Part shown: positions 553 through 23,071 of the stretch, piece by piece
Position numbering within the stretch: position 1 is the first letter of the stretch
Layout: every line of letters starts with the position of its first letter
Assembly: GCA_963714015.1 (NCBI GenBank)
Contig: OY970223.1
Coordinates: 2,624,001 to 2,688,000 of the forward strand
Source: Vulcanimicrobiota bacterium
GTDB lineage: Bacteria; Vulcanimicrobiota; Vulcanimicrobiia; Vulcanimicrobiales; Vulcanimicrobiaceae
DNA length: 64,000 nt
Direction of reading: 5' to 3'
Notes under the pieces: generated by a model
Databases searched by the model: none
The model's input: only the letters and a program-made list of their open reading frames with translations
What the model was told of the DNA's origin: nothing
Position numbers and translations under genes: made by a program

Positions 553-1026
553 TCAATCGTCCCCAGATTCTGTCGTACACGTGCACGCGCCCGTGTTCTT
601 GTTCTCTCCGCAGTTCGCGCAGATGCCCAAACAGTCGGCACTGCAGAGCACTCCCATCGGGAGCGAGCTTACCACGACCTGCGTCGCTAGATCTTTTACG
701 TCCAGACGGTCACCCGTCAACACGTTGCTCGGCCCGAACGGATCGTTTTGCGCTTCCGCTGCGGCGTCCAGTTCTTCGTCGACGTCGAAGTGCAATTGCC
801 GGTCGACGTCTACCAGGCACCTGTCGCACTCCCCCCGCATCCGCACGTCGACCGTGCCCCTCACTTCGAGCACGTCCCCCGACGCAGTCACGTTCAATCG
901 AACGCGAGCCGGCTCAGTGAAGCGAACCGCCTCGAACGGTTCAAGGGCAACCTGCTCGTCGAGCAGCAACTGCCTTCGTCCGCCGGCAAGCAGGCTGCTG
1001 ATGTCAACCTTATACGAAGAAGCCAT
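553..1026 (-). CDS. yceD: YceD/DUF177 family protein
   Basis: CDRCL and LPMGVLCSADCLGICANCGENKN motifs; directly upstream of rpmF. Confidence 0.93.
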   Translation of the reverse strand: MASSYKVDISSLLAGGRRQLLLDEQVALEPFEAVRFTEPARVRLNVTASGDVLEVRGTVDVRMRGECDRCLVDVDRQLHFDVDEELDAAAEAQNDPFGPSNVLTGDRLDVKDLATQVVVSSLPMGVLCSADCLGICANCGENKNTGACTCTTESGDD

Positions 1027-5953: not shown

Positions 5954-5963
5954 GGATGCTCCT

Positions 5964-7400
5964 CTAGGGCGTCGCCCAGGCGTGGAATGCGTCGTAGCGC
6001 GGATCGTTCACCCACGAACCGCTCGCGATGGAACCGAGTCCAATCGCGCTAAAGGGACCCCCGCCGTCGTCGCCGTCCCAAATCGACGCGTTCACGATGC
6101 ATGCGATCTGCGGGTCTTGCAGCGCAACGCCGTACGCAGCGGAGAGATCGTGAGCGGCGACTTGCGGATCGAGTCCGTACGCGCTCGTATCGCTTGCAAA
6201 TCCGGTTTCCGTCAGACAGATCGGCGGACGCTCACCGTTCTGCGCAGCGATCGCCTCAACGCCTTTGTAGTTCAGCCATTGATTCTCGTAGGTCAATCCC
6301 CAAGAGACGGACGGCGGCATCTGCCAGGCGAAATTGTGAACCGAAAGACCGTCCCAGCAGGCGCCGATCTTGCAGCCGGAAGCGTAGATATTCGTAAGAT
6401 CGGTGAACAAGTTCGTGTGATTGCCGCCGCCGTTTGCGAGGCCGGGGCCGTAGACGGTCAGACTCGGATCCGCTGCTTTCACGGCGGGGTAGCCCGCTTT
6501 GAGAAACGCTGCGATGCCGGCGCCGGTGTCTGAATCCATGAACCAATAACTTTGGTTTGGCTCGTTCATCAGCTCGACTTGCGCAATCTGCGGGAGACTT
6601 TGCTGGGCCATCTGCGCGTTGTGCGCGACGATCCAACGCGTCACGGTCGCCGCATACGTTCCGTAATCGGTAGCGTTCGCGAAAGCTTTGTTCATGCCGA
6701 TTGTCTGCTGAATCCGCGAACCGCCGTACTGCAAGATGATCGGGAACATCGCAATGCCGTGCTGCGCTAAATGCGTTGCGATGTAGTCGTACGCCGTCCA
6801 GTTGGCGTCTAGGCCGTTGAGATTGCCTTGCAAGCCGCCCCAGATGAATGAAGCCTGAATCTCCACCCGTGCGCACGTTGCACCGGCGTTCGCCGCGGCT
6901 TGTTCCGCTGAATCGATGAGCGTATTGGCCGGAACGTTCGGAAGGTTCTGGCACGGGTTGTGCGAGCAGTCGCGGATCGTCTGCTCCTCGAGCGTCCAGG
7001 TATGGCCCATGACGCAGTAGCGACCCTTCGGCGCCGGCGGATGCGAGACGGGCGGCATATAGACTTGCGCGGGCGTCGTGACGGTAAACGTTGCGCCGTT
7101 CGAAGAGACGACGTACGCGACGCCTGGCGTGCGGCGCCAGCGAATCGCGACGCTGTTTGCGCCCACTCCGCCGTAAGCGTAGACGGTTGCGGCAGGCGAA
7201 ACGCTCGCACTCGTTTGAACGGGTCCTGCTGCGAAGCGAAGCACGAGCGGCGTATCGTACGGCATGGTGCCGCCGTTCTGTATCGGATAGCAGAGGGTCG
7301 GCGTAATCGTGGTGCAGGCCGACTGAATCGCCGGTGAAGATTGCGCGGCCGGATGAGCAAGGTGCAGCGCGGTCAAGAGCGCGATGAAGAGATGCTTCAT
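5964..7400 (-). CDS. Secreted clan GH-A glycoside hydrolase (GH5/GH39-like)
   Basis: Signal peptide; ELMNEPN acid/base, WDGLSVH and ICLTETGF nucleophile motifs. Confidence 0.8.
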   Translation of the reverse strand: MKHLFIALLTALHLAHPAAQSSPAIQSACTTITPTLCYPIQNGGTMPYDTPLVLRFAAGPVQTSASVSPAATVYAYGGVGANSVAIRWRRTPGVAYVVSSNGATFTVTTPAQVYMPPVSHPPAPKGRYCVMGHTWTLEEQTIRDCSHNPCQNLPNVPANTLIDSAEQAAANAGATCARVEIQASFIWGGLQGNLNGLDANWTAYDYIATHLAQHGIAMFPIILQYGGSRIQQTIGMNKAFANATDYGTYAATVTRWIVAHNAQMAQQSLPQIAQVELMNEPNQSYWFMDSDTGAGIAAFLKAGYPAVKAADPSLTVYGPGLANGGGNHTNLFTDLTNIYASGCKIGACWDGLSVHNFAWQMPPSVSWGLTYENQWLNYKGVEAIAAQNGERPPICLTETGFASDTSAYGLDPQVAAHDLSAAYGVALQDPQIACIVNASIWDGDDGGGPFSAIGLGSIASGSWVNDPRYDAFHAWATP

Positions 7401-8329
7401 TGACCGATTGCCGCTCCAATCGGACCCTGCAATCCGGTGCTTACGCTATAACGCGCTTGCGTTGAGAAGTTCTCCACAATGACATCACCCGCGCCGTTGT
7501 GGCCGTCGCCCATCTGCGGCAGCACCATTTCTCCGGCAGCATCGCGCGTTGCATACGCGACGTAAAAATCATGGTTATCCAAAACATGCAGCAACGTGTA
7601 GTTCGGCCCGCCATATTCGGCGACAGGAATCGGGCACGGACCCGCTGCGTACAGATTGCCCGCAGCGTCGACGCTGAGCGAGAAAACCTGAACGCTCGCA
7701 CGCGCGAAGATCGAGCGATGCGTTCCCAAGAACGCGCCTACGGGATACTCGTACACCTCTTCGACCGCTTCGCACATAACGTACGTCGGCCACGCATCGC
7801 CGATGCCGGAAATCGACACGAACACGTCACCGGCGCTATCGACCGCAATACCGCGCGGCGCGTATCCTGTCGGCGTGTTGACACTTTTCAGGTAGGTCCC
7901 GTTCGAAGAGTACTCGACGATCTGACCGCCGGACGTGCCGTGTTGCCAGGAATCCGCAACGTACACGGTGCCGTCGCTTCCGACCGCGACGTTCATCGAA
8001 TGATGCAAGTTCCACCAGAAGCGATGGATGACCCAACGCGCACCGGAGGCGTATTCCATGACGCCGTTCAGCGTTGCGACGTACACGTGTCCTGCGGTAT
8101 CCGTTGTGACCCCGCCGACATTCGGCAAGCCGCGCACCGCTCGAAGCGGCGCAGCGTCATTCTGCCCGGCCGGATAGACCAAAAGCGCGTTTTGCGGGCG
8201 GTCGGCGACGTAAAGGTAACGCGCAGCGGGAGCGTTATGGACCGATTGGACGGAAACGGGCGTCGGAATGGAGGCACTTGCGCATCCGGAAATGACAATG
8301 CACGCGAGCAATGCTAGGGCAGATCGCAT
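7397..8329 (-). CDS. NHL-repeat lipoprotein (moron)
   Basis: MRSALALLACIVISGC lipobox; YLYVAD, PRGIAVDSAGDVFV repeats; same family as the host gene at 1559. Confidence 0.8.
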   Translation of the reverse strand: MRSALALLACIVISGCASASIPTPVSVQSVHNAPAARYLYVADRPQNALLVYPAGQNDAAPLRAVRGLPNVGGVTTDTAGHVYVATLNGVMEYASGARWVIHRFWWNLHHSMNVAVGSDGTVYVADSWQHGTSGGQIVEYSSNGTYLKSVNTPTGYAPRGIAVDSAGDVFVSISGIGDAWPTYVMCEAVEEVYEYPVGAFLGTHRSIFARASVQVFSLSVDAAGNLYAAGPCPIPVAEYGGPNYTLLHVLDNHDFYVAYATRDAAGEMVLPQMGDGHNGAGDVIVENFSTQARYSVSTGLQGPIGAAIGQ

Positions 8330-8365
8330 AGGAAAAAACCTCGTAAAGCGAAGGTGTAAGAACAG

Positions 8366-8411
8366 AAAAAGCCCCGCCGCAGCCCAATCCTTTGGGCCGA
8401 AGCGGGGCTTT
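8366..8411 (-). terminator. Intrinsic terminator at end of lysis/late operon
   Basis: aagccccgc...gcggggctt stem followed by TTTTTCTGTT on the minus strand. Confidence 0.7.
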
Positions 8412-8445
8412 GGTACATCCATGTTATGCCAGAGGCATACGTGAT

Positions 8446-8755
8446 CTACGGCGGCGAGTTTTGCCTGAAGATTCTTCAGGAACGCGATGCCTGCGGCGAC
8501 GAAAGCCGGCGCGCCTTGGGAGAGCGCGGCAGCGAGATTCGCCTCTTCCGATTGCAGCGCGCTGCCGACGATCGGCGAGAGCCACGCCGGAACGATCTTC
8601 TCGAGCGCCGCGTTGACGTTCGCCTCGGAGGGCGATGACCCGACAGCAGGAGCAACCGCTTCAACTTCGGCGATGATCGTCGCCTCGTTGGCTTGCGCTT
8701 CATTGGCGACAAAGCCGACAACGGCGGCTTCCAGTTTTTGAATGAAAGAACTCAA
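8446..8755 (-). CDS. Amphipathic hypothetical protein in lysis cassette
   Basis: TTG start after AAAGG. The apparent read-through into the terminator is probably a 1-nt error near 8450. Confidence 0.5.
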
Positions 8756-8817
8756 GATATGACCTTTCTGCAGAAATGGCAGCGCTGACCGGGCTGCGCG
8801 CGGTTTGCGAAGCAAAA

Positions 8818-9474
8818 TTAAAAAGCCGCACTAGGCGGCGTCTTTCTGTTTGAGCGCGACGACGGTTCCGGGCGTCGGCGGTGGCGGGGTAGTTCGAACG
8901 GTGCGCGGCATACCAAAGTACGCGGCGAGCACGGCCAACACCACGGTCCCGAATATCCAGACGAGCGCACCGACGAGCTGCGCGATCGGCGTCGCATCAG
9001 CAGGCATGAATTGGTGATGCCTGAGGTGGGAGAACGACCAATACAGCGAGATGAGATATTCCGGCTGACTGAGGAGTTTGAAAAGCGCGGCGACGGCACT
9101 GCATACCGACACGGCACCCGCGGCAAGGCCGATAAATCCGCAGCGATAGGTATTGAGGTTTTGCAGCATATCGTCCCCACCATGCGGTAGATGCGCACGC
9201 GCGTTACGCCTGAAAAGCGCAGATCATCGCGCACGACCGGTGAAACGTCGACAAGGTGCCCCGTCCATAGCGCCGGACCGTAATCCTCAACGACGCACCA
9301 CGATTCTGCGCCGTTAGCATCGTTGACGATCTGAATCCGCGTCCCGAACGGCACCAAATGCCGGGTTGCGCAGATGCGAGCGGCCGGATTAAATGGACGA
9401 CCGTCCGCCATGGTGCCGGGCTGGTTGTACCAGCTGGCAATGCCCATGGCGACGAACGCCCAGACCGGCGTCAC
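8818..9474 (-). CDS. RlpA-like (double-psi beta-barrel) lytic transglycosylase; domain within about 9170-9474
   Basis: GIASWY...FNP...AT...PFGTRI...VEDYGP...VDVS motif pattern. Confidence 0.8.
   Translation of the reverse strand: MTPVWAFVAMGIASWYNQPGTMADGRPFNPAARICATRHLVPFGTRIQIVNDANGAESWCVVEDYGPALWTGHLVDVSPVVRDDLRFSGVTRVRIYRMVGTICCKTSIPIAADLSALPRVPCRYAVPSPRFSNSSVSRNISSRCIGRSPTSGITNSCLLMRRRSRSSSVRSSGYSGPWCWPCSPRTLVCRAPFELPRHRRRPEPSSRSNRKTPPSAAF
8831..9169 (-). CDS. Two-TM membrane protein, holin candidate
   Basis: Two hydrophobic segments and a charged C-terminus; adjacent to murein hydrolases. Confidence 0.55.
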   Translation of the reverse strand: MLQNLNTYRCGFIGLAAGAVSVCSAVAALFKLLSQPEYLISLYWSFSHLRHHQFMPADATPIAQLVGALVWIFGTVVLAVLAAYFGMPRTVRTTPPPPTPGTVVALKQKDAA

Positions 9475-10166
9475 GTCGTCGCGAGGCGACGCTCTATCTC
9501 TATTTTATAGGCGTGCTCGCGTTGGCGCAGGGCGTTTCCCATGATCGACGGATCGATGTTCGCGTTGCTCATTCCATCCGGCAGCGGTACTTCCGTCGCC
9601 CAGTCCCAACGCTCGCCGGTCACGTAATAGTTTGCGTACTGTGGCGGATTGCCCGGATGATTCGCCGCTTCACCATGCGAAAACGAAATATGCTCCCCGG
9701 CATACGGACCATCCGCGGCGGTGCCGCTTAGGTCAATGTCGTACGCGCACGCGACAGCAGCGACGCCGGAGCACATCCAATCGGTCGTCGCGAGGGTGAT
9801 CGGCTCTGGTCCAAAGTTGTGCTCGTCGGCGAACGCCATATCATCCGTCGCGAACCCGAATGCTCCCGTGTTTCGCATATACGTGTGCGAGTGCTCGTCG
9901 TTGTCGTTCACGCCGATGGCGTTGTCTTGTGGGTTGCCGCAAACGTCGAAATAGAAGTGGCCGTTCGCGAAACGCAGCGCACCATTGTAATCGTTGAAAT
10001 CTTGGCCGTAATGCCCAACCGTCCAATGCCGGTAAATGCGCTTCAACGTACCGGGCGGACACGGATACTTCGACTTGAGCAGTTTTGCGTACTCGACGGC
10101 AGCGACTATCGCCGCCTCGGTCAAAGGCGCGGCAGGGTCGAAAGTTCCGAGCGGATTGAAGTCCAT
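9471..10166 (-). CDS. N-acetylmuramoyl-L-alanine amidase-like endolysin
   Basis: RIYRHWT, HTYMRNTG and SHGE zinc-amidase-like motifs; GGAG RBS. Confidence 0.7.
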   Translation of the reverse strand: MDFNPLGTFDPAAPLTEAAIVAAVEYAKLLKSKYPCPPGTLKRIYRHWTVGHYGQDFNDYNGALRFANGHFYFDVCGNPQDNAIGVNDNDEHSHTYMRNTGAFGFATDDMAFADEHNFGPEPITLATTDWMCSGVAAVACAYDIDLSGTAADGPYAGEHISFSHGEAANHPGNPPQYANYYVTGERWDWATEVPLPDGMSNANIDPSIMGNALRQREHAYKIEIERRLATT

Positions 10167-10170
10167 GTGA

Positions 10171-10593
10171 TTACTCCCCAGGTCTATAAAAAGAGCCCCC
10201 TTGACGGAGGCTTTCTTGTAGTGCTTCTTCGAGTTCGGCCGGTATCGGTGGGAGTCCGGATTCACCGCCTCCGCTGCGCACGTGCCCAATGACTGATCCG
10301 ATGTAAACGATAGCCGAAGCGAATTGACGCTTCATACTCCGCATTTCGTCGCACATCTGCTCGACCGCCGCTTTCCAGCCCTCGGAACTCAATCGGTAGG
10401 CGTCAGCTGCTGCGCGTGCTTCTCGCTCGCGTTGCAGGGCGGAGTCGCGCTCGCTCAGTGCGATCGCTGCTTCGTGCGCAAGGTGAACCCTGTCGCGAAA
10501 TACGGGTATGCCGCGGATAACGCCATACATTGCCGTTAATGCGGCGACGAGTTCAGCAACGGCGGTAATGAGCGGCACGAGCTGAATGTGCAT
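10171..10593 (-). CDS. N-terminal TM plus coiled-coil protein (holin/spanin-like)
   Basis: One TM then a coiled coil; immediately upstream of the endolysin. Confidence 0.55.
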   Translation of the reverse strand: MHIQLVPLITAVAELVAALTAMYGVIRGIPVFRDRVHLAHEAAIALSERDSALQREREARAAADAYRLSSEGWKAAVEQMCDEMRSMKRQFASAIVYIGSVIGHVRSGGGESGLPPIPAELEEALQESLRQGGSFYRPGE

Positions 10594-10682: not shown

Positions 10683-11507
10683 TTAGTTGGAAACCTCGAT
10701 GTGAGTGACGCGTCCGCCGGCCGAAACCGATCCGGTAGTCGGACCGAGGCAGCCATGGACGTTTTGGCTGTAGTACGAATAGTTGACGGTCTGGTATGCA
10801 ACCGCCGCGGCGACGTAGTAGACGCCCGACGAGGGAACGGTGCCCCCTTTGCTGGTCGGATTCCACTGATTCGTCGTCGTGTTCTGTTGTTCGATGACCT
10901 GACCGCCGCTCGCGTTGAGTAGTTCGATAGTCGTCGAACCGGTCGCCGTCGATGTCAGCCGCGTGGTACACGAACTCGTCGAGTAGTAGGTCGTCGAGGC
11001 CGTCTGCGGCTCGGAATCGAACGAGACCGTGACGTGTGTCCCGCCGATAATCGTGGCGCCGTCGTTTACCGCCTGCTCGATCGTAAAGCCGGATGTGGTT
11101 CCGTACGCGTCTTGCGCACCGCTCGGCGGCGAATTCGGGTCTTGCGTGGCGCTATAGGAAACCGAACCCGCCTGCACGGTCCAGTTGAGCGATCCCTGAA
11201 TCAGCCACGGATCGTCATCCGGTTGAATCGTCGTCGAGTTGACGGCGCAGGATTCAGCAGCGCTCAGGCCCATCATCGCATTCGACGGAGATCCCGAGCA
11301 CGCGCCGTTATTTTGAACGTACGTTTCGAAGTCGCTGACGGACACGGCTTGAAGCGAACCGTTCCACGATGACTGCGCACTGCTTTTCCACGTGAACAGC
11401 GAGCCGATGTGCGAGTAGACGTACCCGCGGCTAAAGCCCTGGTCTGACGCCAGCAGCGCGACCGCTGCGATCGCGCAAAGCAGCGCGCGCGCTAGCGGCG
11501 AACGCAT
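10683..11507 (-). CDS. Signal-peptide-bearing beta-rich protein at end of tail module
   Basis: MRSPLARALLCAIAAVALLA signal; Ser/Thr-rich mature part with 4 Cys; overlaps the fibre gene's stop. Confidence 0.7.
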   Translation of the reverse strand: MRSPLARALLCAIAAVALLASDQGFSRGYVYSHIGSLFTWKSSAQSSWNGSLQAVSVSDFETYVQNNGACSGSPSNAMMGLSAAESCAVNSTTIQPDDDPWLIQGSLNWTVQAGSVSYSATQDPNSPPSGAQDAYGTTSGFTIEQAVNDGATIIGGTHVTVSFDSEPQTASTTYYSTSSCTTRLTSTATGSTTIELLNASGGQVIEQQNTTTNQWNPTSKGGTVPSSGVYYVAAAVAYQTVNYSYYSQNVHGCLGPTTGSVSAGGRVTHIEVSN

Positions 11508-13654
11508 GAGGGAACCTTGCGGTTCTGCGGCAAGGCGCACAGGCCGCGAACCATCTTTACGAGTCCGTCGATCTCGCGTTGCTCCTTCAGAATTGCGAGC
11601 GCGTCGACGGTCGAGAGCGCGGCAGCATCGAAGTGATCGTGATGCGCACCGGAGAGCACCGAGGGCGTATCGTTGGCAATGAATCCGTAGCGCTCGGTCT
11701 TGCCGCCGTCGCCGTAGCCTTTCCGATACCGGTATTGTTTGAAGTCCGTCTTCATCAGCACGTCGAGCGGGTCGAACGTGATCGGCATAATGTCGTGTTT
11801 CCACTCACGCCGCGACGGGAAGAGGAAGTTCGAGGCATAGACGCTGCCGCCGACTCCGACGTTGCTCGAGTTATCGACACAGACGCGCCAGGCGATCGCA
11901 GACTGGGCGATTCCCGCGGTGGTGCAGGGAATGCCCTGAAGCGTTACCGCCGAGCCCGGGGCGCCGAACTGCGCAAGGCCGTTGACGACAAGATTGTTGT
12001 TGCCCAGAATGTTCAGCGGACCGTTCACGTTCGAACCCGTCGGACCGTAGGACGACGATCCGGCGACGACCGCGCCGCTGCTATTGAGCGTCAGGCCGCC
12101 GTTGATCGTTGCACTCGCCGGGCCGTACGTCGACGACCCCGCCAAATACGATCCTTGGATCTTCACGCTGCCGCCGTGCTGCAGTTGCACTTCGTTGACG
12201 CCGCCGACCTGATAGTCCGCGATGTCGCCCGTCGGCGAGGACGCGTTGCTGGCATTCCACGTGAACGGTACGGCTGAACCGGTTGCATTTGAGGCAATGG
12301 TTGCGCCGCTAGTGCTCGAAAACGCGAAGGGAGACGCAGCAGAAAACGTCTGCAGTCCGGCGAAGGTCTGAGGGCCGCTCGTCTGGGCGCACGCCCCGGA
12401 AATCGTTCCGAGCGATGACGTGGACGTCGCCTGCACGCAGAAGCCGTTCGTAAAGCCGCTGAACAGGTTCGTCAGCCCAGAGCCATTGCCGACGAAGGAC
12501 GCGGCCGTCACCGTTCCCGCGGGCGAGACGCTGAATTGCGTCGCACCATTGTACTGGAACTTCGAGTTGCCGCTACTATCGACGGCAAAGTTCCAGGTAT
12601 TCGTCTGCGGCGCGCTGCCCGTCCAAGACGACGACTGCAGTTGGAACCCGCCGACTGACCCGTAATTCTGAGACGACGTCGCAACGCCGGCTGGCGTGAT
12701 TTGACTGTTTCCCGCCCAGGCCGCGCTGTTGGCTGAAATCGATGTGAACGACGGCGTATGCGAAACGTCGACGACGTAGTTCGATCCCGAAGGCGTGACA
12801 CTGACGTTCGCGTCGCCCGCCGAGACCGTCGTCGGCGAACCGCCGGACGTGTTGCATCCGCCGCTCACAAGTTGCGCATTCGCATCGAAGAAGGCACAGG
12901 TCGCCGGCGAGACGCCCGCGTTCCCGATCTGTGCCCAGCCGTGGTTCCACCCGGGCGCCATCGTAATGTTCGAGGACGTGATGCTGGTCTGGCCGTTGGC
13001 GACCGCTACCCACCCGAGCGCGACATAGCCGCTATCCGCCGTCGGCTGCGTCGGTGATGTGCCGGCGGTTCCGGCTTTGGCGACGATCGAGATGAGATCT
13101 GACCGTTGCTGCGCGACGTTGAAGGGCGACGGATTGCCCAGGTTATCGAGAAAGGTGCGGCTCGCGAGATTGTGATCGAGTGGCGGCTGCACCTGCGCTT
13201 CGATGAGGTAGTACATCGAATAACCGGAGGTGGTCGGCGCCGTGAGCGGCCCGATCGGCGCGGTCGCCGAGCTGATGAAGGCCGGAACGGCGATCTTGGT
13301 TGGATCGGCGGGCAACGCGTCCGGGTCTGCCGTCGGTGTCGCTTGCGGCATCGGATTCGGATCGTCCGCAACCTGTTGATAAACTGCGCCGTTCGTTGAA
13401 CCGGCGGTAGGCGCAACCGTCACGTTCAGGCCGCTGCCGGGGCTTATCGTAAGATCCGCGTACGTGCCGGTTAAGCCGGCATGCAGCATCATGGTGCCGA
13501 TCAGAATGCGGGTGTCGCGCTCTTGCTGATTATAGTCCTGGTCGTTCGGCTGCAGACCCCAATAGTAGATCTGGCGATCGCCCGCGCGCGCCGGCAGCAT
13601 AACGAGTTGAGACAATAAAAACGCTGCAAGCACAGCGCATAGCACTCGACGCAT
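11492..13654 (-). CDS. Tail fibre with C-terminal peptidase S74 intramolecular chaperone and N-terminal signal peptide
   Basis: GGGAG RBS; fibre N-domain DRQIYY...APTTSGYSMYYLIEA...VANGQTSITSSNI; C-terminal PSRREWKHDI...YGFIAND. Confidence 0.85.
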   Translation of the reverse strand: MRRVLCAVLAAFLLSQLVMLPARAGDRQIYYWGLQPNDQDYNQQERDTRILIGTMMLHAGLTGTYADLTISPGSGLNVTVAPTAGSTNGAVYQQVADDPNPMPQATPTADPDALPADPTKIAVPAFISSATAPIGPLTAPTTSGYSMYYLIEAQVQPPLDHNLASRTFLDNLGNPSPFNVAQQRSDLISIVAKAGTAGTSPTQPTADSGYVALGWVAVANGQTSITSSNITMAPGWNHGWAQIGNAGVSPATCAFFDANAQLVSGGCNTSGGSPTTVSAGDANVSVTPSGSNYVVDVSHTPSFTSISANSAAWAGNSQITPAGVATSSQNYGSVGGFQLQSSSWTGSAPQTNTWNFAVDSSGNSKFQYNGATQFSVSPAGTVTAASFVGNGSGLTNLFSGFTNGFCVQATSTSSLGTISGACAQTSGPQTFAGLQTFSAASPFAFSSTSGATIASNATGSAVPFTWNASNASSPTGDIADYQVGGVNEVQLQHGGSVKIQGSYLAGSSTYGPASATINGGLTLNSSGAVVAGSSSYGPTGSNVNGPLNILGNNNLVVNGLAQFGAPGSAVTLQGIPCTTAGIAQSAIAWRVCVDNSSNVGVGGSVYASNFLFPSRREWKHDIMPITFDPLDVLMKTDFKQYRYRKGYGDGGKTERYGFIANDTPSVLSGAHHDHFDAAALSTVDALAILKEQREIDGLVKMVRGLCALPQNRKVPSCVRR

Positions 13655-13662
13655 GTTTCTCC

Positions 13663-15264
13663 CTAGCCCGGCTGCATCGCCGTGATGACGGCCTCGGAAA
13701 TGTTGTTGTTCGAATCGATCGGCGCCCAACCAAAGAGCGTAAGCGAACCGCCGTACGGGTTGGAACCACCCTCGCTTCCGAGATAGTAGGGCAGACCCAT
13801 CGAAGTCGGATTGTAGACCAGATCGACGGTCACTTCGCCCGCGGGCAGATTCGCGCCGACACTGTTCGAGTTTCCGCCTGCATTGCCGACGAAGGCGCCG
13901 TTGACGTACACGCCGACCGATGCAACGCCCAGAGCGTGGAACGTAATATTGGCTCCGGCAGCAAGCGTCAGAATCGTGCGATAGCCGATTGAGAAAGGCT
14001 CGCCGTAAACGGTGTCTGCGCCGATCTTGATGCTGCCGTCGAGCGAGAGGGACTTGCCCCAATTCGTACCATTCCCCGGACGCGCGTAGCCGCCGCCTGC
14101 AAGGAACGTCACCGTGAAGGGCATACTGCGCGGCGGCGGATTCTTCAGCGCTACGCTCGTCGTCGCGCCGTCGGTAACCTCGAAGTCCGTGGAGAAGTCG
14201 AGCTCGAGCGCGCCAGCATAGCCGTTGAGGGTGGTCACGCCCTCGTTATCAAACGCAAAAGTGCCCGACGAGACGCGACGCACGTGGACGCCATTGCCGT
14301 CCTCGAGCGTGAAGGCTTCCGGACCATCGCCGTTGATCGTCGCGGCCGCCGGAGGCGCCGGAACGTTAATCTTGATCGTTTGCGCGTCTTGCGATGTAAC
14401 CGCCGCAACACCGCCGCCCTCGATGACGACCGATCCGGATTTGCCGTTCACACTGGTTTGTGCTTGCGCCGGCGGGGCGTTGATCTGAATGGTGCCCGCT
14501 TCCGGCTCGGTTACGGTTACCTGGCCGTCACCCTGAAACGTGAAGATCGGGCCGTTCTGATTGTTGATGACCGTTTCCGGGACGGTAATGTCGATCTGCT
14601 CGGGATTCCCCGAATCGACCGCAACCGTGGCCGCGCCCTTGCCGGCGAGTAATACCGATCCGCCCACGCCGTTGAGCGACGTTACGGGCGAGCTATCCGT
14701 TCCGGTGATGCACTTGCGCACGTCGGGAAAGATCATCGTGATATCCGCTTGCGTGATACCGGTCGCATTCGCTGGAACGGTAATACGAGCGAGTTCCACG
14801 TAGCCGGCCGGCGGCGTTTCGCTGCCTTCGACGTACTGCAGTGTTATCGTGTTAGCGTCGAGCGGAATGACCTGATCGGTCTTCGACCCGTCGATAGCCT
14901 CGACTTCGCGTGTAATCGTATCGCCGTCCGGAACCTGCGGCGTCGCCTGGATCGCGATGGAATCAGTGCGTTGCGCCGGCCCCGAACCCGGGCACTGCAG
15001 TTGCGTTGCAGGACAGTTGTCGCACCAATTCCCCTCCACGAACACGCGTTGGTTCGCGCCGCCGACCGTGACCTGAAACGACCCGTTTGCCGTAATCTGC
15101 AGCGGATCCATGGCAGGCAGGGCATTCATAACGCCAAGGACCGCTGCGAGGATCTCTTGCGATCGGTTGCGCGCAGCCTGCGCTTCCGAGAGCATATCCG
15201 CAGACTGGACGAGCTCGCCGTCCTCGAATGCGACGTTCTCGGTGTTGGAAAAATCCGAACTCAT
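13663..15264 (-). CDS. Tail fibre/baseplate-attached fibre protein (no signal peptide)
   Basis: RTDSIAI and PPAGYVELARITVPANATGITQADI motifs; repeated V-T-S-x-N-G-x-x-G shaft units. Confidence 0.8.
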   Translation of the reverse strand: MSSDFSNTENVAFEDGELVQSADMLSEAQAARNRSQEILAAVLGVMNALPAMDPLQITANGSFQVTVGGANQRVFVEGNWCDNCPATQLQCPGSGPAQRTDSIAIQATPQVPDGDTITREVEAIDGSKTDQVIPLDANTITLQYVEGSETPPAGYVELARITVPANATGITQADITMIFPDVRKCITGTDSSPVTSLNGVGGSVLLAGKGAATVAVDSGNPEQIDITVPETVINNQNGPIFTFQGDGQVTVTEPEAGTIQINAPPAQAQTSVNGKSGSVVIEGGGVAAVTSQDAQTIKINVPAPPAAATINGDGPEAFTLEDGNGVHVRRVSSGTFAFDNEGVTTLNGYAGALELDFSTDFEVTDGATTSVALKNPPPRSMPFTVTFLAGGGYARPGNGTNWGKSLSLDGSIKIGADTVYGEPFSIGYRTILTLAAGANITFHALGVASVGVYVNGAFVGNAGGNSNSVGANLPAGEVTVDLVYNPTSMGLPYYLGSEGGSNPYGGSLTLFGWAPIDSNNNISEAVITAMQPG

Positions 15265-15273
15265 ACGTGTCCT

Positions 15274-16386
15274 TTAGGTGGAACGCAAGATGTAGACGGG
15301 GCGCACGCCGCCCGCTTTGATGCGACGCACAACGATGTCCAGGTTGGGGTCCGGCGCGGCTCCCGGCCCGAACTTGGTCGAGTCGAAGACCTGCGCCGCG
15401 TGGCCCAGGATCGTTTCCCGTCCAAGATGCGCAAAATCGGCATAGAACGCCGAGTCGTCAGTCGCCCACTCAATGACGATCGCGACCTGGCCGTAGGTAA
15501 TGTTGAACGCCGCGGCTGACGTCGGGTCGCTCTGCGTGTCGAACACGTAAATATTGGGGACAAGTAACTGCTCAGATGACGGTTGGAAGACGGCTAAACC
15601 GCCGCGCGTACCGATACCGCCCATCGTTCCGAGTGAAAGGTCTTGCAGCACCTTATTGGCCGTGACTGCCTCGGCCGCAAGATAGTAATTCACGGCGCCG
15701 GTGAGAATCGCTTGAAGCGTTTGCAGCTTCATCCCGAGCCGCTTGCGAATTCGCAGGGAATACGCAGCATCGTTCCCGGCTTCCGACGGCAACCGCTGCA
15801 TTTCCGTGCCGTAGATATCATTCGCGGTCAGGTCGAGGTTGTTATCGCTGCGAGTTGCCCAGCGCGTCTGGTTCTTCGTATACGGAATTTCGAGCGAGGC
15901 AATGTACCCAAAGCCGCTCGCAATACCGAACGCCATCGCGTACAGTAGCCCGGTCGTCGACGGATCGCCCGTATCGGTGCGCGCCGCATCGGTAAACCAC
16001 CGCTTTGGGATCAGCGCCATGATCCGCTGCGTAAATTCGGCTTGCGTGTACGGTAAAGGCGGCGGCGGCGGCGGCTCAACCGGCTGCTGCGTCTGCTCCT
16101 GAACGGGGACCAACACGCGAATCGTTTGATTCGTTCCCGTGCCGATGAAGGTGGTCGTTCCGGAGGGAGCGTTGGCGCCCGAAAACGTCACGTCGTACAG
16201 GACGTTTTGCCCGGCGTACATCTCGATCGTACCGCCGGCTGCGAGAATGGCGGTCTGAACGAACTCGTCGCCCTGCTGGATAATCGTCGCCGTCAGACCA
16301 GCCGCCAGCGGCGTACCGGTCTGATCGACGAAAGTCACTTCTACTTGCTGGGATACGCTTTCGCCAAGCAGCAAGAGAAGCGACAT
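15274..16386 (-). CDS. Baseplate wedge protein with N-terminal extra domain
   Basis: EFTQRIMALIPKRWF, LDLTANDIYG and AYSLRIR motifs; position between baseplate J and fibres. Confidence 0.65.
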   Translation of the reverse strand: MSLLLLLGESVSQQVEVTFVDQTGTPLAAGLTATIIQQGDEFVQTAILAAGGTIEMYAGQNVLYDVTFSGANAPSGTTTFIGTGTNQTIRVLVPVQEQTQQPVEPPPPPPLPYTQAEFTQRIMALIPKRWFTDAARTDTGDPSTTGLLYAMAFGIASGFGYIASLEIPYTKNQTRWATRSDNNLDLTANDIYGTEMQRLPSEAGNDAAYSLRIRKRLGMKLQTLQAILTGAVNYYLAAEAVTANKVLQDLSLGTMGGIGTRGGLAVFQPSSEQLLVPNIYVFDTQSDPTSAAAFNITYGQVAIVIEWATDDSAFYADFAHLGRETILGHAAQVFDSTKFGPGAAPDPNLDIVVRRIKAGGVRPVYILRST

Positions 16387-16400
16387 GTATGCTCCTTGGG

Positions 16401-19400
16401 CTAGTGAACGACGAGCAGGACTTGGCCGTCGTACAACACTTGCGAATTGCTGGTGATGTCCGAAAGCGACTTCGAGTAGTCGAACGTGCCGCCGTTCGGG
16501 ACGTCCTGACCGCTCGATCCGTTACAGACCGCAGCCGTTCCGTAGCCGAGTGATCCGCTCTGCGGCATCGCGTAGATCGGCGCACCGGACCCCGATCCCC
16601 AATAGGTCGAAAGCGGCGTGCACGGCACCAAGACGTGACCGAGACGCGAGTAGGTATGCGGCGCCCAGCCCGAAAGGTTCGAGGCACTGACGACTCGCGA
16701 TGCGCCAGATCCGTTGATGACAACGAGCAGCGGACCGCGGTCCTGAGCGCATGCGAACCACTGCCGCCGGTCGAATGCCGTGCAGCTGCCGCTTCCGGTC
16801 ACATCGAACACCCAGAGATGCTCGAACTCGAAGCAATACAGCCCGGTGATGCCGTTGCAGAGGATGTTCGAATCGTACGATCCGCCGACCGCGCACTTGA
16901 CGTTCGTACCGTTGTACGGAGACGAACCCTCGCCACACGGCTTCTGCCCAGAGGCGCCAGTCGGATCTGCCGGCATGGGCGTATCGCGTCCTGACGGCAT
17001 AACGAAATCGAATGGCCAGACGTCCATGCAGTTCGGGGAGAGTCCAGCGCTGCCGAAGCCGCACATATCCGAGAACTCGGATAACATAACGGGTGCGTCG
17101 TCCGAGAAAAGGCCAAGAATCGGGGCGTATTCCCACAGTTGATTCTGCTGGTGAATGCCGGTCCCGAGCGAACTCGTTGACGTCCCCTGAATCTCGTCCG
17201 ACTGATCGGCAAGGAACATCGCGGCGATCTGCGTGTTGATGCCGGTCTTGACCGTTTCTTGATAGAGCGCAGCGATATTGTTGATCGCGCTGTGCATCCC
17301 CTGATCGACGCCAATACCGCTCTTGAGTCTGCTGAGCGACCGGGCCGTTATAGGGCAGCGGTTGAGGCGTCGGGCACGTCACGCCGTCGCACCCAACGAG
17401 CGTTTCTTCGTCAACTCCGAAGCGCGTGTTCGCGTTTTGGTTGACCGCTTGCGAAGTGTTCTGCAACCCGTTATAGGTCACGTTCATCGCCGATCCGTTC
17501 TGATGCTGCAATCCACCAAGGAAAGCGGCCAGCGCGGTCTCGTACGACGTGTCAGACGGGAACGTCAGCGGTCTATCGTTGCTCGTCAGGAGCGTCGTGC
17601 GCGTGTGGTACGTGCCATTGAAAAACGCGCTCGGATTGAACGATGTGCCGCTCGCGCCAGAGGTTGGGTCTGCGTACGGAGATGACGAGCCGGTTCCGAA
17701 GTTTTTGCCGCCTTGGTACGACCCGTCCCATATATCCCAGCCCGCGGATTCCAGGCCGATGAAGGCGTTGTCTTTGAATACCGAGGCGATCGCGTCGAAC
17801 GGTTGGGTTGACGCATTGCTGTCGTGCTTGCAATTCGCAATCACGTCGTTCGTGAACGCGAGCAGGCTAGCCGATCCGAGGTTCAGGTAGAGGTAGTATC
17901 GAGACGATCCGTCGATTCCCCAGCCCATATAGTCGACGTTTCCGGTCGTGCCGCCGTTGACGTAGATAAACCAATTGTTCGCGCCGGTCGACGTGTAGTC
18001 GGGAATCGTGTACGGAGTTCCGGCCAGCGTGACGCTGGTTTGCTGATCCCAGAAGTTGCCGCTGCTGATCGTCGCCGCGGCGTCGCACGTGCGCGATCCG
18101 TTATTGAGATATGAGCCGTGGAACGGGAAGTCGACGTCGTGTCCGTTCGCGTCGGGTTGCCCCAAGCCGGACTCCATGTAGTATTCCCAGCCATTTGCAA
18201 AGTTCCAGCGGCCGGGGCCCGGGCACGTCGTGGGCCAGAGGTTGTTACTGTTCGCGGTCGATCCGATGCACAGATCGTCGTATTGCGCGATCTGCGCGGA
18301 CGTCGCGGTCATGTTCGAATTTACGCCCTCAGACGAGAGCTCGCCGAACCAGGCCATTTCATCGCGTAACGGCGGCGGTGTCGCCGCAGGTGGCGTCGGT
18401 GTGGGCGTCGGGGTGGGCGTCGGTGTCGGAGCCGGCGTCGGGGTTGCGTAAAACGAGCCCGAGAAGCGCGCGGTCTGCGACATGGTGATGAACTCGGATA
18501 AGCCGTTCGCATCGAAGATCCAGTCGCGATCGCATTTCGGGTAGTTCGACCAGGACTCGAATGTGCTGAAGACCTGCGTCTTCGGAAAGTCGAGCGGCAT
18601 GTACGTCATCGCATCGGAGTACCACTGCGCTTGCGTGTTCAGCCCGGCGACGTAGCCGGTGCAGTTCGGGTCCGCCGTGACGTTCGCGCTGTTTTCAGCA
18701 CTCTCGATCCAGCCCTCGGGGAGATCCGGGTACCGGCTGGTCATGTAATTGTAGTACACTCTGGTAGGTGTTCACGAGGCCGTTCGCGTTGCCGACGTCG
18801 TACTGATCGTCGCCGATCATGTCAACGTCGTACGACCCGTCGATAGGCGCTGCGCACTCGAGCACGTAGCAGGTTTTCGGAAAGAAATTCTCGGTAAGCG
18901 ACGGGTTGCCGCCGGTAGGATTCCACAGCCACATAATGTTCGTGGCCCCGTCGATGTAGACGGAACGATAGTAGACGTACTCGTACCAGGCTTGAAAGAG
19001 TTCGCCCTTTTGAGCGTCGGTCGGAGCCATGCCGGTCGCTGGCCAGATTGCGGGAAAGTCGTAGATGGAGTCGTTATTGCTGCACTTCGCTGAACTCAGG
19101 CACTGATCGAATTCGTGAAACGGTCGCGCGTAAATCGGACCCGGATAGGCTTTCATACGCTGCGCGAATGCGTCGATGTAGCTGTCCCACTTCTCGTAGC
19201 ACTGCGTAGACGAATTTGGATTCGTTGCGCACGATGGCGGCGGAGCGGGGAAGCCGAGCGACTCCGCAACCGCTGCCGGTAAATAGCTTGCGAGCGATTC
19301 TGCCGACGACGTCGGGAGCCCAGCACTCCAAGAGACAATCGGCGTACGCTTGAGGGCTATAGAAGCGATGATGCGCGGATCGATGGGAGCGCCGACCGGT

Positions 19401-19735
19401 CCCCAAACCTTTGAGCCCGAATTCACGAAGTAGGTGGGCGAGCCGTAAATGAGATCGATCGGCAGCGAATGCCCCACGAGCGTTTCGAGCGTCTCTTGGT
19501 TGTTCTCTTGGATCTGCGCACCGCTCAAGATCAGACCGGTGGGCTTCGGTGACGGGCTGGATGCCGCGCGGAAAAAGCCACCGACCAGAATTTGGCCCGA
19601 GGGGAGCGGCGTCGGGTGCGGGTACGGCGTCGGAGGGTGGCCGACGAATGGCCACGTGCCGTACGTTTGCTGCGCGCTAGCAATACCGCTCAAAGCGGCA
19701 AGCAAAAATACGGCCGCGAGGGCGCTTCGAAGCAT
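16401..19735 (-). CDS. About 1100-aa secreted two-domain glycanase (GH26-like plus second GH-like barrel), split by two frameshifts
   Basis: Signal MLRSALAAVFLLAALSGIASA; GH26-type ARPFHE, WLWNP, VDMIGDDQYD and WIES motifs; PT linker; second domain with SVFKDN. Frames join near 18765 and 17330. Confidence 0.7.
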
Positions 19736-19743
19736 TCCTACAC

Positions 19744-21356
19744 CTAACGTGAGCTGAATTGCGTGCCGATGATGTTGATGTTTATCGTCGCCACGGAGGC
19801 AGACGATCCGAAACAGAGCCCGTCGCCGATTACGGTGCGGAAGATCTCGCTGTTTGCCATGTGCAGCACGACGTTGCCTCCCGCGGGAACCAGGATCGGC
19901 GCGCCGATCGCGACGGCAACGCCTGAGCCGCCGCAATTCGCGCCGGTCCCCTCATAGGCTTGAACGGAGACTGCCGTCGCGCTGGTGTTGGACAAAGTGA
20001 GCGCCGAAACGCGCACTGCGGCGCCGGTTTGCTCGGTAACGCCTTTGATGCAGCTCGTCGTACTATTCAGCACGACCGGGCACATCGAGCCCTGGGAAAC
20101 GGACGTTGTGCACATCGACAAGCCGTTGTAATCGTTGTCCGCGAAGAGCCCGGCAACGTCCGGAGCGCCCATGGTGCCCTTGGAGTCGGCGAGGCCGGTT
20201 ACCGTGGGCGTGTTCTTGATCGCGGTCCAAGCATAGCCGTTACCGTAGCCAGAAAGCGGCGAGATGGACCATGCAACCGTCGGCGTTCCGGAAAGCGCTC
20301 CCGCTGCGCGCACGCGAATCCAGCCGGCACCGGTTACGTTGAGTTGGTAGACGCCGTTGGCGCTGGCAAAGTAGTTCGGGGTGTTCGACACGGGACTCTG
20401 CAACCCGAGCTGAATCCCAAAACCTGAGACCCAGCCGCCATTCGAGCCGTTCGTCGAATCGACGCTGCGTTCGTAGTAAAGATTTCCGGACGTCAGGCCG
20501 CTAATGCGCAGATCGACTTGACCGCACGCACCAGGGCAGTAAAACGCGGCGTACGAGTCTGCAGTCGGCGCCGTCGTATTGACGTTTCCATTGCCGAACA
20601 TCGCCGGACCGGCGCTGTCGGTAACCAAGATTTGCGCGCTCGAGGGAGCGGGACTCGCTTGGGCTACGAACTGATTGCCGGACGTGTCGCAGCGCGTAGA
20701 GTACGCTGTTCCGCCGTTGGCCGTGACGGGCGACGTCACGGTGGGGCAGTAAGGCTGCGTGTTGACGCCGTTGCCGGGATTAGACGTCGCGGCAGGTACG
20801 GGCGGAGGCGGCGTTATGACGGCAACGGGACCGTTCGACCCGTTGATGTTCACATTGACGTCGCCGGCCGGGTCGAACGAGAACGGCAGTCCGCCGCTAT
20901 AGCGCGGTGAGCAAAGGATCGTAATCGATCCGGTACCCACGTTCGTCACGCTCAGATCGAAATAGCGCGCGCCGTTGAGTGCAAAGATGTACTGTCCGTT
21001 CGCGGTGAGCGAACTTCCCACGGTGGGCCCCTGGACATAGATGCCATTTGCCGCTTGCGGTTTCGCGTTCAGCGAATCGAATGCCAGATACGACGTAACT
21101 GCCGTCGTTCCGTCGAAACCCTCCAGATCGCAGCCGAGTGCGTGTACGCATGGATTCCGCCGTCGAACGTGTACGAGTACGTGTTCGGCGCGGGCGTCGC
21201 GGTGGCGGGAAACGTCGTCGGGGTGGGCGCCGGAATGACGTGCTGCACCTGCGAGTACGTGGTCTGTGCCTGCGTCGGAGCCAAGAAACAAAACAGCGCC
21301 ACGAGGGCGCCGAACGTTCCGATTCCATACTTGAGTAGAGAGCGTTTTAACGCCAT
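19744..21356 (-). CDS. Secreted Cys-rich multi-beta-sandwich protein, one frameshift near 21140
   Basis: Signal ...GALVALFCFLAPTQA; an internal domain resembles the protein at 43706. Confidence 0.65.
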
Positions 21357-21838
21357 GCGACGAGCACTCCTTTTGTCGGGGCTGGACCTGCCAGGTTGAT
21401 GCAAAGCCCGGCGGGGACGCTCAGGCCGTCGTATTCGGCTCGGTCGCCAAGATTCGTAAAATTGCCGATGCACTGACCGCCGGCCGAGGTGGCGCCGTTG
21501 TAGACGCCGATCGTGTAGGCCGCCGGAGCACCTTCGAGGTTGCGGAGGTAGCCGATCTCGACGGCGCCGGCGATATCGGTGTCACCGAGTGCGTCGACGA
21601 TCGTGAACTTGAAGGGCGTATCCGCCGTTGCAACGGGATATCCACCCTGCATACCTTGCGTCGCAACGGCGCCATTCACCGGGGCGACGCCCGGCGCGGT
21701 GACGTCCGCTTTGCTGATCGTGCCGCCTTCTTCGCACGCGATCTCCATCAACTGCGCGTGGCATTGCTGCCCAGCCCACGTTCCGACATCGGTCGCGACG
21801 TCTTGGCCGCCCGTGAGCTGGATGAAACTTTGTCCCAT
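21347..21838 (-). CDS. Hypothetical virion-associated protein
   Basis: GAGAGAGG RBS; follows baseplate J. Confidence 0.6.
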   Translation of the reverse strand: MGQSFIQLTGGQDVATDVGTWAGQQCHAQLMEIACEEGGTISKADVTAPGVAPVNGAVATQGMQGGYPVATADTPFKFTIVDALGDTDIAGAVEIGYLRNLEGAPAAYTIGVYNGATSAGGQCIGNFTNLGDRAEYDGLSVPAGLCINLAGPAPTKGVLVAWR

Positions 21839-21853
21839 GGTACCTCTCTCGGT

Positions 21854-23071
21854 TTAGGAGATGGTGACGTGCGTAAGATCGGTGCGCGCGAGTTGAAAAT
21901 TGGTCAGTGGAATATCCTGATACGCGTTGTTAATTTGCAAGTTCGCGTAGCCCAGCAGTCCCTGGCCGGGCTGCGTTCCAACGAAACTCTCCACGAGTTG
22001 GATCAGTCCGATGAATGGCAGCTTGCCGGTTGGGTTAAGGCCGCCAGAGCCATACGTGGAACCGCCTGGACCGTTTGCGTTGACCCACGCAATAATCGCT
22101 TGCTGCAGCGCGAGCTGCACTTGCCCAAGCTGAAAGCCGGGCTGCGCTACGGTTCCACTGACGGTGACGGCAACGATCTCGTTTTGCGGTGGCACCACGT
22201 CGAAACCAATGCCGCCCGTTCGAATGGCCGAGATACTGCTTTTAATAGCTGCTATCGTGACGTTAGGGATGCTTCCCGATCCATCGTCAACGCAGATCGT
22301 ATAGTACGCGTCCTTCTCGTTGCCGTTCTGGTCGGTTAGGTCGTTGTAAGTGAAGGCGAGGCCGACTTGCGTGCCCGAGACGGCCGCGCAGATCCCGCGT
22401 TCGGTTCCATCGCCGCCGAGCGCCGCCATCCAATCGGTGAAGCGCTGCCAAAGCGGCCCGTCTTCTTCCGTGGGATTGCCATTACTGATCGCGTTCTGGT
22501 TCGTAACATTGTCCGCCGGAACGTTGGGGCTCGAAATGACGGTGAGCGTTCCCGCCTCGAGGTTGCCGATTGTTCCGGCCGTAAGACACCGCGCCGTGAC
22601 CGCAACGGTGAGGCCGTTTGCCGGAAAAATATAACCGCCCAGCACGGTGCTCGATGCTGGATTGTCGGGATCGGCGATGGCTTGGAACTGCACCGGCATT
22701 GCCGGCGGCTGAACGACATTCTGAACGATCGTATCGAACGGGATGACGCCCTGATTCGGATTCGGTTGATTGTTCGCAAACGTGAGCGTCGTCGTAGCGA
22801 ACGACGCACTGAGGCGTGGCGTAAAGCCCGATTCGACGAAATCGCCGACGTAGGAGTCGAGATCGGCGCCGGCGCACAGCTTGCCGCGCGAGAGCTCGGC
22901 GACGTCGAGATTTTGCTGCTGGACGAAGTCAAACTGTGTGGCCAGCGAGTATGTGAGGGCAGCTTCCGGGGTGTTATCACTGAAGTCGTCGATCTGATCG
23001 GTCTTAACGATAATGCCGGACTCGATGTCCTCCTGGAACTGCTCCGGAGTCTTGGTTTGCGGCTGAGGCAA
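21854..23071 (-). CDS. Baseplate J/gp47-like protein
   Basis: GADLDSY, AGTIGN, VTNQNAISNG..EEDG.L..RF and VDDGSG motifs. Confidence 0.9.
   Translation of the reverse strand: MPQPQTKTPEQFQEDIESGIIVKTDQIDDFSDNTPEAALTYSLATQFDFVQQQNLDVAELSRGKLCAGADLDSYVGDFVESGFTPRLSASFATTTLTFANNQPNPNQGVIPFDTIVQNVVQPPAMPVQFQAIADPDNPASSTVLGGYIFPANGLTVAVTARCLTAGTIGNLEAGTLTVISSPNVPADNVTNQNAISNGNPTEEDGPLWQRFTDWMAALGGDGTERGICAAVSGTQVGLAFTYNDLTDQNGNEKDAYYTICVDDGSGSIPNVTIAAIKSSISAIRTGGIGFDVVPPQNEIVAVTVSGTVAQPGFQLGQVQLALQQAIIAWVNANGPGGSTYGSGGLNPTGKLPFIGLIQLVESFVGTQPGQGLLGYANLQINNAYQDIPLTNFQLARTDLTHVTIS

Follow-up and report, generated by a model that had tools for sequence, protein, structure and literature searches.

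The stretch of DNA analysed here, hereafter the window, comprises 64,000 nucleotides (G000:C1:2624001-2688000) of the genome of a Vulcanimicrobiota bacterium, which is assembled as a single contig of 3.56 Mb with 60% G+C, and it carries on its minus strand a myovirus-type prophage that extends from approximately 8.8 kb to past 64 kb. Between the gene for the Baseplate_J protein (J) and the lysis cassette lies a run of genes here termed A, B, C-D, E, F, G and H (Table 1). To judge from their N-terminal sequences, four of the proteins encoded in this late operon (B, C-D, G and H) begin with genuine leaders of the Sec/signal peptidase I type. Textbook tailed phages build all their virion parts in the reducing cytoplasm and have leaderless structural proteins, and it is the presence of a leader on the tail fibre G that forms the main subject of this report.

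The four N-termini, with the predicted cut marked by a slash, read MALKRSLLKYGIGTFGALVALFCFLAPTQA/Q for B (start 21356), MLRSALAAVFLLAALSGIASA/QQ for C, the first open reading frame (ORF) of C-D (start 19735), MRRVLCAVLAAFLLSQLVMLPARA/GDRQ for G (start 13654) and MRSPLARALLCAIAAVALLA/SDQ for H (start 11507). Signals were scored by the best 12-residue Kyte-Doolittle window within the N-terminus together with a net positive n-region, and the best windows reach 2.62 in B, 2.53 in C, 2.79 in G and 2.95 in H, with n-region net charges of +1 to +3. The head, tail, baseplate and endolysin genes stay at or below 1.94, and the small membrane protein I, at 2.12, has an n-region that is not positive; under this one fixed rule exactly B, C, G and H pass among 27 late genes, and none of the 23 others does. 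The basic n-regions and hydrophobic cores that a first-pass annotation of this DNA had described at these four starts are thus recovered, and the same hydropathy test agrees with it in finding no signal on the interleaved baseplate and fibre genes at 21854 (Baseplate_J), 15274 (E) and 13663 (F). Cut sites are AxA-like in B, C and G, the three of four for which this had been claimed, and weaker in H, where LLA/S aligns with GAS/SNQ and AFA/SNQ of the two homologues with visible N-termini. B, C and G have Shine-Dalgarno (SD) sequences (AGGAG, AGGTG and GGGAG, respectively) at a distance of 4-9 nt before the start codon, 4 nt in the case of G, and the start of H is preceded only by AAGG. Inspection by eye led us to reject Tat signals for the four proteins, which have no S/T-R-R-x-F-L-K motif, and lipoprotein signals, there being no lipobox cysteine at +1. 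Across homologues the leader is kept in kind rather than in sequence, being present in 13 of 13 close relatives of G, in both readable homologues of H and, as a signal or lipoprotein leader, in seven of the nine C-family relatives fetched, and the signals hold up as real protein features rather than start-codon artefacts.

In the fibre G, the signal peptide leads into a conserved N-domain (approximately residues 25-240), which is followed by a variable shaft and, at the C-terminus, by a Peptidase_S74 domain (PF13884; 28.9 bits against a cut-off of 22). The four relatives returned by a first search are all leader-bearing and share 41-49% identity in the N-terminal third, and a profile of the N-domain matched 15 longer proteins that fall into two groups. 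The close group holds nine proteins, including G, each of which opens with K/R, a hydrophobic core and an AxA site followed by G/A/S/T-D/N-R-x-x-x-Y. Four further leader-bearing members come from genome G182, genome G249 (two) and a metagenome contig, and the 13 close relatives are these four, G itself and eight database proteins; their leaders differ in sequence, and all 13 have an AxA-type site and the conserved residues after it. The distant group comprises six proteins (P0021-P0026) that begin with M-D-R-Q-I-N-Y-P-G or similar, and four of these six match PHROG tail-fibre families (phrog_863, 11518 and 4209 relatives). The N-domain is shared by these six, by gp49 of Ralstonia phage Raharianne (YP_010078173.1), and by phages Hyacinthe and Albius and Komagataeibacter phage phiKX1 (profile E = 3e-16 to 9e-11). 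Gp49 matches G in tblastn at 1e-11, occupies the same genome place and has the same opening, (T)DR...Y/W-P/S-G. By homology, then, the closest proteins to G appear to be the fibres of cultured myophages, which, unlike G, begin at Met and have no leader.

In a joint alignment, the predicted cut ARA/GDR of G falls exactly on Met-1 of the six leaderless relatives (MDRQINYPG...), and it is also in register with Met-1 of gp49 (MTDRVTTWPG...), tblastn aligning residue 26 of G to codon 3 of gp49. Since the cut coincides with Met-1 of leaderless relatives, the leader reads as a precise addition to a canonical fibre: G appears to be an ordinary contractile-tail phage fibre with a cleavable leader grafted exactly onto its native N-terminus, and removal of that leader would regenerate the canonical fibre N-terminus. 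The conserved N-domain (42-49% identity) and the variable C-terminus together make up, at the level of sequence, the usual pattern of virion-bound receptor-binding proteins. Among 50,697 GenBank phage records the N-domain matched four Ralstonia records only, of which gp49, the one read, is leaderless, and in a phylum sample it was found in three of 401 genomes, G000 included, all of one family (f1). Members of the leader-bearing clade came from uncultured viral or metagenome contigs and from the prophages of a single bacterial family, and from no other source, and PDB sequence searches with G and with its N-domain profile gave no match.

The public database model of G is a protein of 702 aa that starts 18 codons late, at an internal ATG (13600), and thereby hides the leader. 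We do not take this ATG for the main start, since no SD sequence precedes it, whereas 13654 has GGGAG, and since the relatives retain the leader. A related possibility is that the leaders are uncleaved signal-anchors, or that alternative starts give two forms, and that the tethered or leaderless form serves assembly at the inner membrane, no soluble intermediate passing through the periplasm. The poor -3 residue in H would suit an anchor, and in-frame internal Met codons are present in the leaders of G (ATG 13600), P0003 and P0017, the first of them being where the public model begins. However, P0002, P0019 and P0020 lack such a Met, so that internal starts are not a conserved feature, the one in G lacks the SD sequence seen at 13654, AxA-type sites and the residue pattern behind them recur in all 13 G-like leaders, and a positive n-region would still leave the bulk of the protein facing the periplasm. 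We consider a tethered or leaderless form improbable and retain the cleaved leader as the preferred reading.

The genetic context of G is that of a structural gene. By tblastn, the order tape measure (TMP)-W-J-E-F-G is found in two IMG/VR contigs (L010 and L011) and E-F-G-I-K in G182 (L025), and Raharianne gp49 sits after V, W, J-like and I-like genes. In the prophage under study, the F stop lies 8 nt ahead of the G start and the last 16 nt of G are shared with H; across related loci the interval between the F stop and the G start is 0-10 nt, and an SD sequence precedes the leader start codon in six of seven. Such tight order, together with the SD sequences, suggests that G is co-expressed with the structural genes. 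The leaderless F has a conserved N-terminal part of about 180 residues in related phages and is variable in the remainder; between it and the N-domain of G there is a weak motif match (E = 0.021), the C-termini of the two proteins are unrelated, and a complex prediction of F with residues 25-260 of G scored 0.02, which is no evidence either way. Given that E directly follows J in related phages, and that in L025 a membrane protein comes directly after G, the A-D block (21838-16401) and H appear, from this comparison, to be additions special to this prophage; a promoter and terminator scan found nothing above shuffled expectation to mark either as a separate unit. Of the four genes that had been taken for tail-module parts, G keeps that standing as a member of the conserved core W-J-E-F-G, and B, C-D and H, absent from related phages, do not.

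Mature cysteines number 10 in B, 6 in C, 8 in D1, 10 in D2, 8 in G and 4 in H, all of them even counts, and those of G form four pairs with spacings of 11-16 residues, in keeping with the multiple, closely paired cysteines reported at the outset. The full-length leader-bearing fibres likewise have an even mature count in 10 of 10 cases (4-18 Cys), mostly as pairs within 25 residues, and leaderless fibres have an odd count in three of seven and few close pairs. The pattern, as read from the sequences, fits oxidative folding.

Genes B and C-D are interrupted in the assembly. A frame plot of third-position G+C was used to follow the coding frame, which switches three times inside apparently continuous genes of the region: between B1 and B2 at about 21130-21069, between C and D1 near 18760-18800 and between D1 and D2 near 17310-17378. 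The relative P0007 aligns to both C (its residues 124-263 with C residues 182-324) and D1 (its residues 271-355 with D1 residues 8-100; 42% identity, E = 3e-19), and hence the continuity of C and D1 may be regarded as proven by alignment, with a single predicted catalytic domain crossing the break. Outside the window, at G000:C1:2035484-2038733 and 2063474-2066972, two essential host genes, rpoB and rpoC, each have a reading frame broken in like fashion, and the breaks in B and C-D are for this reason probably assembly indels and not biology. A programmed -1 frameshift at B1/B2 was rejected, as there is no in-frame X XXY YYZ slippery site and rpoB and rpoC are broken alike. The starts at 21356 and 19735 in the initial gene models therefore stand and the lengths do not, both genes being longer owing to the frame breaks; that at 19735 runs through two of them to 16401. 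The same three frame changes within 5 kb, with a fourth probably in the tape-measure gene, could also be read as those of a decaying prophage, in which the breaks are real, B and C-D are dead and the signals are functionless relics. Against decay stand the like splitting of rpoB and rpoC in the same assembly, by which the breaks are best read as indels, the intact state of G and H, the third-position GC, which remains high across the breaks, and the conservation of the signal-bearing fibre clade in other genomes, and we regard it as very improbable.

Some further observations concern gene integrity. The tape-measure gene consists of two overlapping ORFs (27492-28721 and 26453-27553, minus strand), of which only the first matches PF10145, and is a single ORF of 619-630 aa in related contigs; its split is probably another assembly frame break. 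An ORF for a C-5 cytosine methylase (58129-58905, minus strand) matches only positions 1-111 of a 324-position Pfam model and may be cut off by yet another. Marker completeness is 89.6% in spite of the single-contig assembly, which indel errors may explain.

Read through its breaks, C-D encodes, in order, a signal peptide, a Pro-rich linker, a predicted GH26 catalytic domain spanning C and D1, a Pro-Thr (PT) linker and about 670 Cys-rich residues that belong to no known family. A sensitive search found 10 relatives of C besides itself, and the nine that were fetched include four with signal peptides, two with lipoprotein leaders, one with a long signal-like N-terminus and two apparently truncated at the N-terminus. 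C alone has no GH26 match in Pfam at E <= 0.01; among the nine, P0010 and P0012 pass the Pfam GH26 cut-off (PF02156) and P0007 and P0011 fall below it, and the family profile of C matches solved GH26 enzymes (2vi0) at E = 8e-25 over 282 positions. The motif RPFHEF is present in C, and the glutamate of its HE may be the acid/base and the WIESAE segment of D1, located by the P0007 alignment, the nucleophile region. The glycanase assignment made previously for the gene at 19735 is in this way supported and narrowed to a predicted GH26 enzyme. Other searches with this gene were unproductive: PDB sequence searches with D1 and D2 gave no match, and a word-index protein search with C returned only C itself. 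Contig scans with two alignments (A1 and A4) found no relative, and a further alignment, A3, proved too divergent for pattern scans. When the DNA of the 12.4-kb region was searched for in 60 relatives, nothing was recovered but the PT-linker repeat and, in G001, the 3' part of H; some match was seen in 47 of 61 genomes, nearly all of it to the low-complexity Pro-Thr linker of D1 (18370-18443), the one part of the region matched in most relatives.

In B the signal peptide is followed by a short N-peptide, and this by a PT-rich linker and by beta-rich modules with paired cysteines. The predicted mature ends of B (QTTYSQ...) and C (QQTYGT...) are both short and followed by Pro/Thr-rich linkers. 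B2 has no match in Pfam, PHROG, NCBIfam, PADLOC or PDB, and protein-language-model features of B offer a lead only, to unnamed viral clusters, with XepA in four of 30 matches. Homologues of H were found in three of 300 other class genomes, and the two with a readable N-terminus bear leaders; H itself has no PDB sequence match, and a protein-language-model feature search gave nothing usable. The possibility that H is a tail-fibre assembly chaperone (Tfa) was rejected, since it has no Tfa match in Pfam, PHROG or NCBIfam, its homologues are not fibre-linked and it is absent from related phages; its matches to T9SS-sorting-domain proteins are sub-threshold and were not accepted.

Table 1. Features of the prophage and of the adjoining region (positions in the window)
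Feature	Position	Strand	Basis
Terminase	41056-42315	-	Pfam
Portal, weak match	38788-40647	-	Pfam
Scaffold	37906-38748	-	Pfam
Tape-measure	27495-28721	-	Pfam
Baseplate_J protein, no signal	21854-23071 (Pfam listing 21857-23071)	-	Pfam and hydropathy
A, 163 aa, no signal; opens the A-D block inserted between J and E	21347-21838	-	
B, predicted exported orphan, ~540 aa	19744-21356	-	
B, signal-peptide coding part, 30 codons, predicted cut TQA/Q	21267-21356	-	
C-D, one predicted exported multidomain glycanase, read as three ORFs	16401-19735	-	
C, signal-peptide coding part, 21 codons, predicted cut ASA/QQ	19673-19735	-	
C ORF	18695-19735	-	
D1 ORF	~17319-18759	-	
D2 ORF	16401-17297	-	
E, 370 aa, baseplate wedge-type, no signal	15274-16386	-	phrog_26379
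F, 533 aa, fibre-like, leaderless	13663-15264	-	
G, 720-aa tail fibre with N-terminal Sec-type signal peptide	11492-13654	-	
G, signal-peptide coding part, 24 codons, predicted cut ARA/GDR	13583-13654	-	
G, Peptidase_S74, predicted intramolecular chaperone domain, residues 616-667	11654-11809	-	PF13884
H, 274-aa predicted exported protein, signal or signal-anchor	10683-11507	-	
Lysis cassette overall	8818-10593	-	
I, 140-aa membrane/coiled-coil protein, lysis cassette	10171-10593	-	
Endolysin, leaderless, lysis cassette	9471-10166	-	phrog_5867
RlpA-like protein, lysis cassette	8818-9474	-	
NHL/SBBP beta-propeller protein, lipoprotein-type start	within 7397-8815	-	
478-aa protein with signal peptide	5964-7400	-	
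517-aa protein with lipobox-like start	4400-5953	-	

Downstream of the lysis cassette, three more exported-looking proteins (4400-8350, minus strand) are encoded that may be prophage cargo or host genes, and a YceD gene (Pfam; 553-1026, minus strand) lies a few kb beyond the lysis end. In the G182 prophage a YceD-like ORF followed by fab genes occupies the matching position by eye (L025, 10552-11064), and the presence of YceD beside both prophages suggests a common integration neighbourhood; a tRNA scan and a repeat scan for att sites found none. At a distance from the tail module, upstream of the terminase, a protein with a PF23140 domain (podophage GP4 fibre I gp80-like; 48298-48846, minus strand) is followed by a 643-aa protein built of GSAVLAS-type repeats (46351-48282, minus strand), and no signal peptide was seen on either.

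The host genome has matches above the family cut-off to LpxC and to VKOR, and a BamA-like gene (E = 3e-37) under its cut-off. Because these three are present, the host is, as far as its gene content indicates, a diderm that has an outer membrane of LPS type and the means to form disulfides in the periplasm. We envisage that G would be threaded through Sec into the periplasm of this diderm host during late expression, that its leader would be cut before G/S/T-D/N-R, and that its four local disulfides would be formed via a VKOR/Dsb-type pathway; the protein would then trimerise and trim off its own chaperone domain. The fibre would meet the cytoplasm-built tail only once the holin opens the inner membrane, which is the least certain step, and would dock through its regenerated canonical N-terminus. 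Fibre addition in model phages is a spontaneous last assembly step, which makes late loading of G physically plausible. B, C-D and H would take the same export route, and may serve either as extra depolymerase or adhesin parts bound to the fibre or as free factors that clear envelope polysaccharide at lysis.

The steps of this scheme differ in strength. On the leaders and their conservation, Sec export, cleavage by signal peptidase I and periplasmic disulfide formation are very likely for G and C-D; export is likely for B, and for H it is fairly likely. The proposal that fibre and glycanase are exported for oxidative folding, which had come with the initial annotation, is supported in part, by the conserved leaders, the 10 of 10 even cysteine counts and the diderm, VKOR-bearing host. 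Loading of G onto virions after the holin fires, argued from analogy, falls somewhat short of an even chance. Taken as a whole, an exported G that is matured in the periplasm and loaded at the time of lysis is our best explanation, and we hold it about as probable as the rest together.

Several observations weigh against it. The signals were scored with a hydropathy rule of our own, and the same rule, applied to 2,124 long ORFs of the genome, flags 7.0% with the first start and 11.4% if the start may be any within 60 codons; at least four of 27 would be reached by chance with P = 0.37, so that the late genes are not enriched. As four of 27 is not above chance, the weight of the finding lies in which proteins bear signals and in their conservation, and not in the count. 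The in-frame ATG 13600 used by the public gene call could yield a leaderless isoform of G, and assembly indel errors make single positions less than fully reliable. The cysteine parity sample holds close kin (P0002/P0003 and P0005/P0017/P0019) and amounts to some 6-7 independent cases; moreover, parity is no proof of a periplasmic route, because phage-tail disulfides can arise without export, as is recorded for a siphovirus tail (PMC13576161). Finally, none of L010, L011, L025 and Raharianne has an equivalent of A, B, C, D or H, B is an orphan for which a search of 300 class genomes with B2 gave nothing past one weak match, and the homologues of H stand outside tail modules and not beside fibre genes where their context is readable. 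Given their absence from related phages and the placement of the H homologues, B, C-D and H may be exported cargo rather than virion parts.

Carried further, these last observations lead to the proposal that the proteins are exported and yet never become part of virions, acting as free or cell-surface factors. On this view G, secreted as a fibre-like lectin, would bind or mask receptors on the envelope, whether to exclude superinfection or to prevent progeny from sticking to debris; release would be helped by C-D and B through the degradation or binding of polysaccharide in the envelope or matrix; and H would be mobile secreted cargo. Besides the absence of the A-D block and H from related phages and the isolated position of H homologues in other genomes, such a role is favored by the ordinary secreted or lipoprotein enzymes among the members of the C family, by a literature search that found no tailed phage reported to load exported parts, and by the leaderless F, which could be the sole virion fibre. 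Yet G retains at its cut the canonical fibre N-terminus and has a conserved proximal domain over 13 relatives, neither of which a free factor obviously needs, and it is tightly coupled to F in a structural operon with no promoter-like site, which makes expression in the lysogen unlikely. The unrelated C-termini of F and G imply, in addition, that G would not mask the receptor of F, and no PADLOC defence family is matched. A free or cell-surface role suits B, C-D and H better than G, and for the set as a whole we judge it rather unlikely.

No tailed-phage fibre bearing a Sec leader came up in full-text literature searches. As regards mechanism, the nearest analogue would seem to be the receptor-binding protein pIII of the filamentous Ff phages: pIII is made with a cleavable Sec leader (as is the coat protein pVIII) and acquires its disulfides in the periplasm prior to incorporation into the particle, and these phages assemble by extrusion through the envelope with no cytoplasmic particle. 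G, on the other hand, has no sequence relation to pIII, and its prophage, with terminase, portal, scaffold and sheath-type tail, is of the cytoplasm-assembled kind. PblA and PblB of Streptococcus mitis phage SM1 are tail-fibre-like proteins that act on the bacterial surface, have no leader and are freed by holin and lysin; they are fibre-like proteins acting outside the cytoplasm, as G would be, and differ from it in being leaderless. Lom and Bor of lambda and Llp of T5 are exported moron or exclusion proteins, small outer-membrane proteins or lipoproteins encoded in or beside tail-fibre regions, and provide a possible model for B, C-D and H; they have no fibre homology, whereas G is a full-length fibre homologue. 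The closest solved match to C-D is the GH26 domain of 'Endoglucanase H' (PDB 2vi0, 2v3g), from which C-D differs by its place within a phage baseplate module and by some 770 additional residues in Cys-rich domains.

Sec-exported phage lysis proteins are known: the signal-peptide endolysin Lys44 of Oenococcus phage fOg44 uses the host Sec system and a cleavable leader (PMC8878798), signal-peptide endolysins are also described in PMC8951688, and the T4 antiholin RI is likewise a late protein exported through Sec with a cleavable leader (PMC8385771). Lys44 and RI are a lysis enzyme and a lysis regulator, whereas G is a structural-type fibre, and the endolysin of the present prophage is leaderless. 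Cysteines of the P22 tailspike are treated elsewhere (PMC3357383), and phage diversity-generating retroelement (DGR) target proteins are described as lacking signal peptides, unlike bacterial ones, this absence being used as a mark of phage origin (PMC6199706). Sec-exported phage proteins as such are already known; what would be new here, and is partly supported by the sequences, is the routing of a tail fibre and an accessory glycanase through Sec.

The existence of a conserved clade of fibre homologues that combine grafted leaders with paired cysteines suggests that receptor-binding proteins can be made by a second route. We tentatively propose, by analogy, a two-compartment assembly in this clade, in which head, tail and baseplate would be built in the cytoplasm and a Sec-exported, disulfide-locked fibre would dock at the holin breach, joined in the present prophage by a putative GH26 depolymerase and two further proteins exported likewise. 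If this is true, gene callers and annotators may err on such genes, as in the late-started public model of G, and filters that separate phage from host genes may misclassify leader-bearing fibres. Expression of such fibres or depolymerases for engineering would need an oxidising compartment, and it would be necessary to reconsider when virions mature in relation to lysis.

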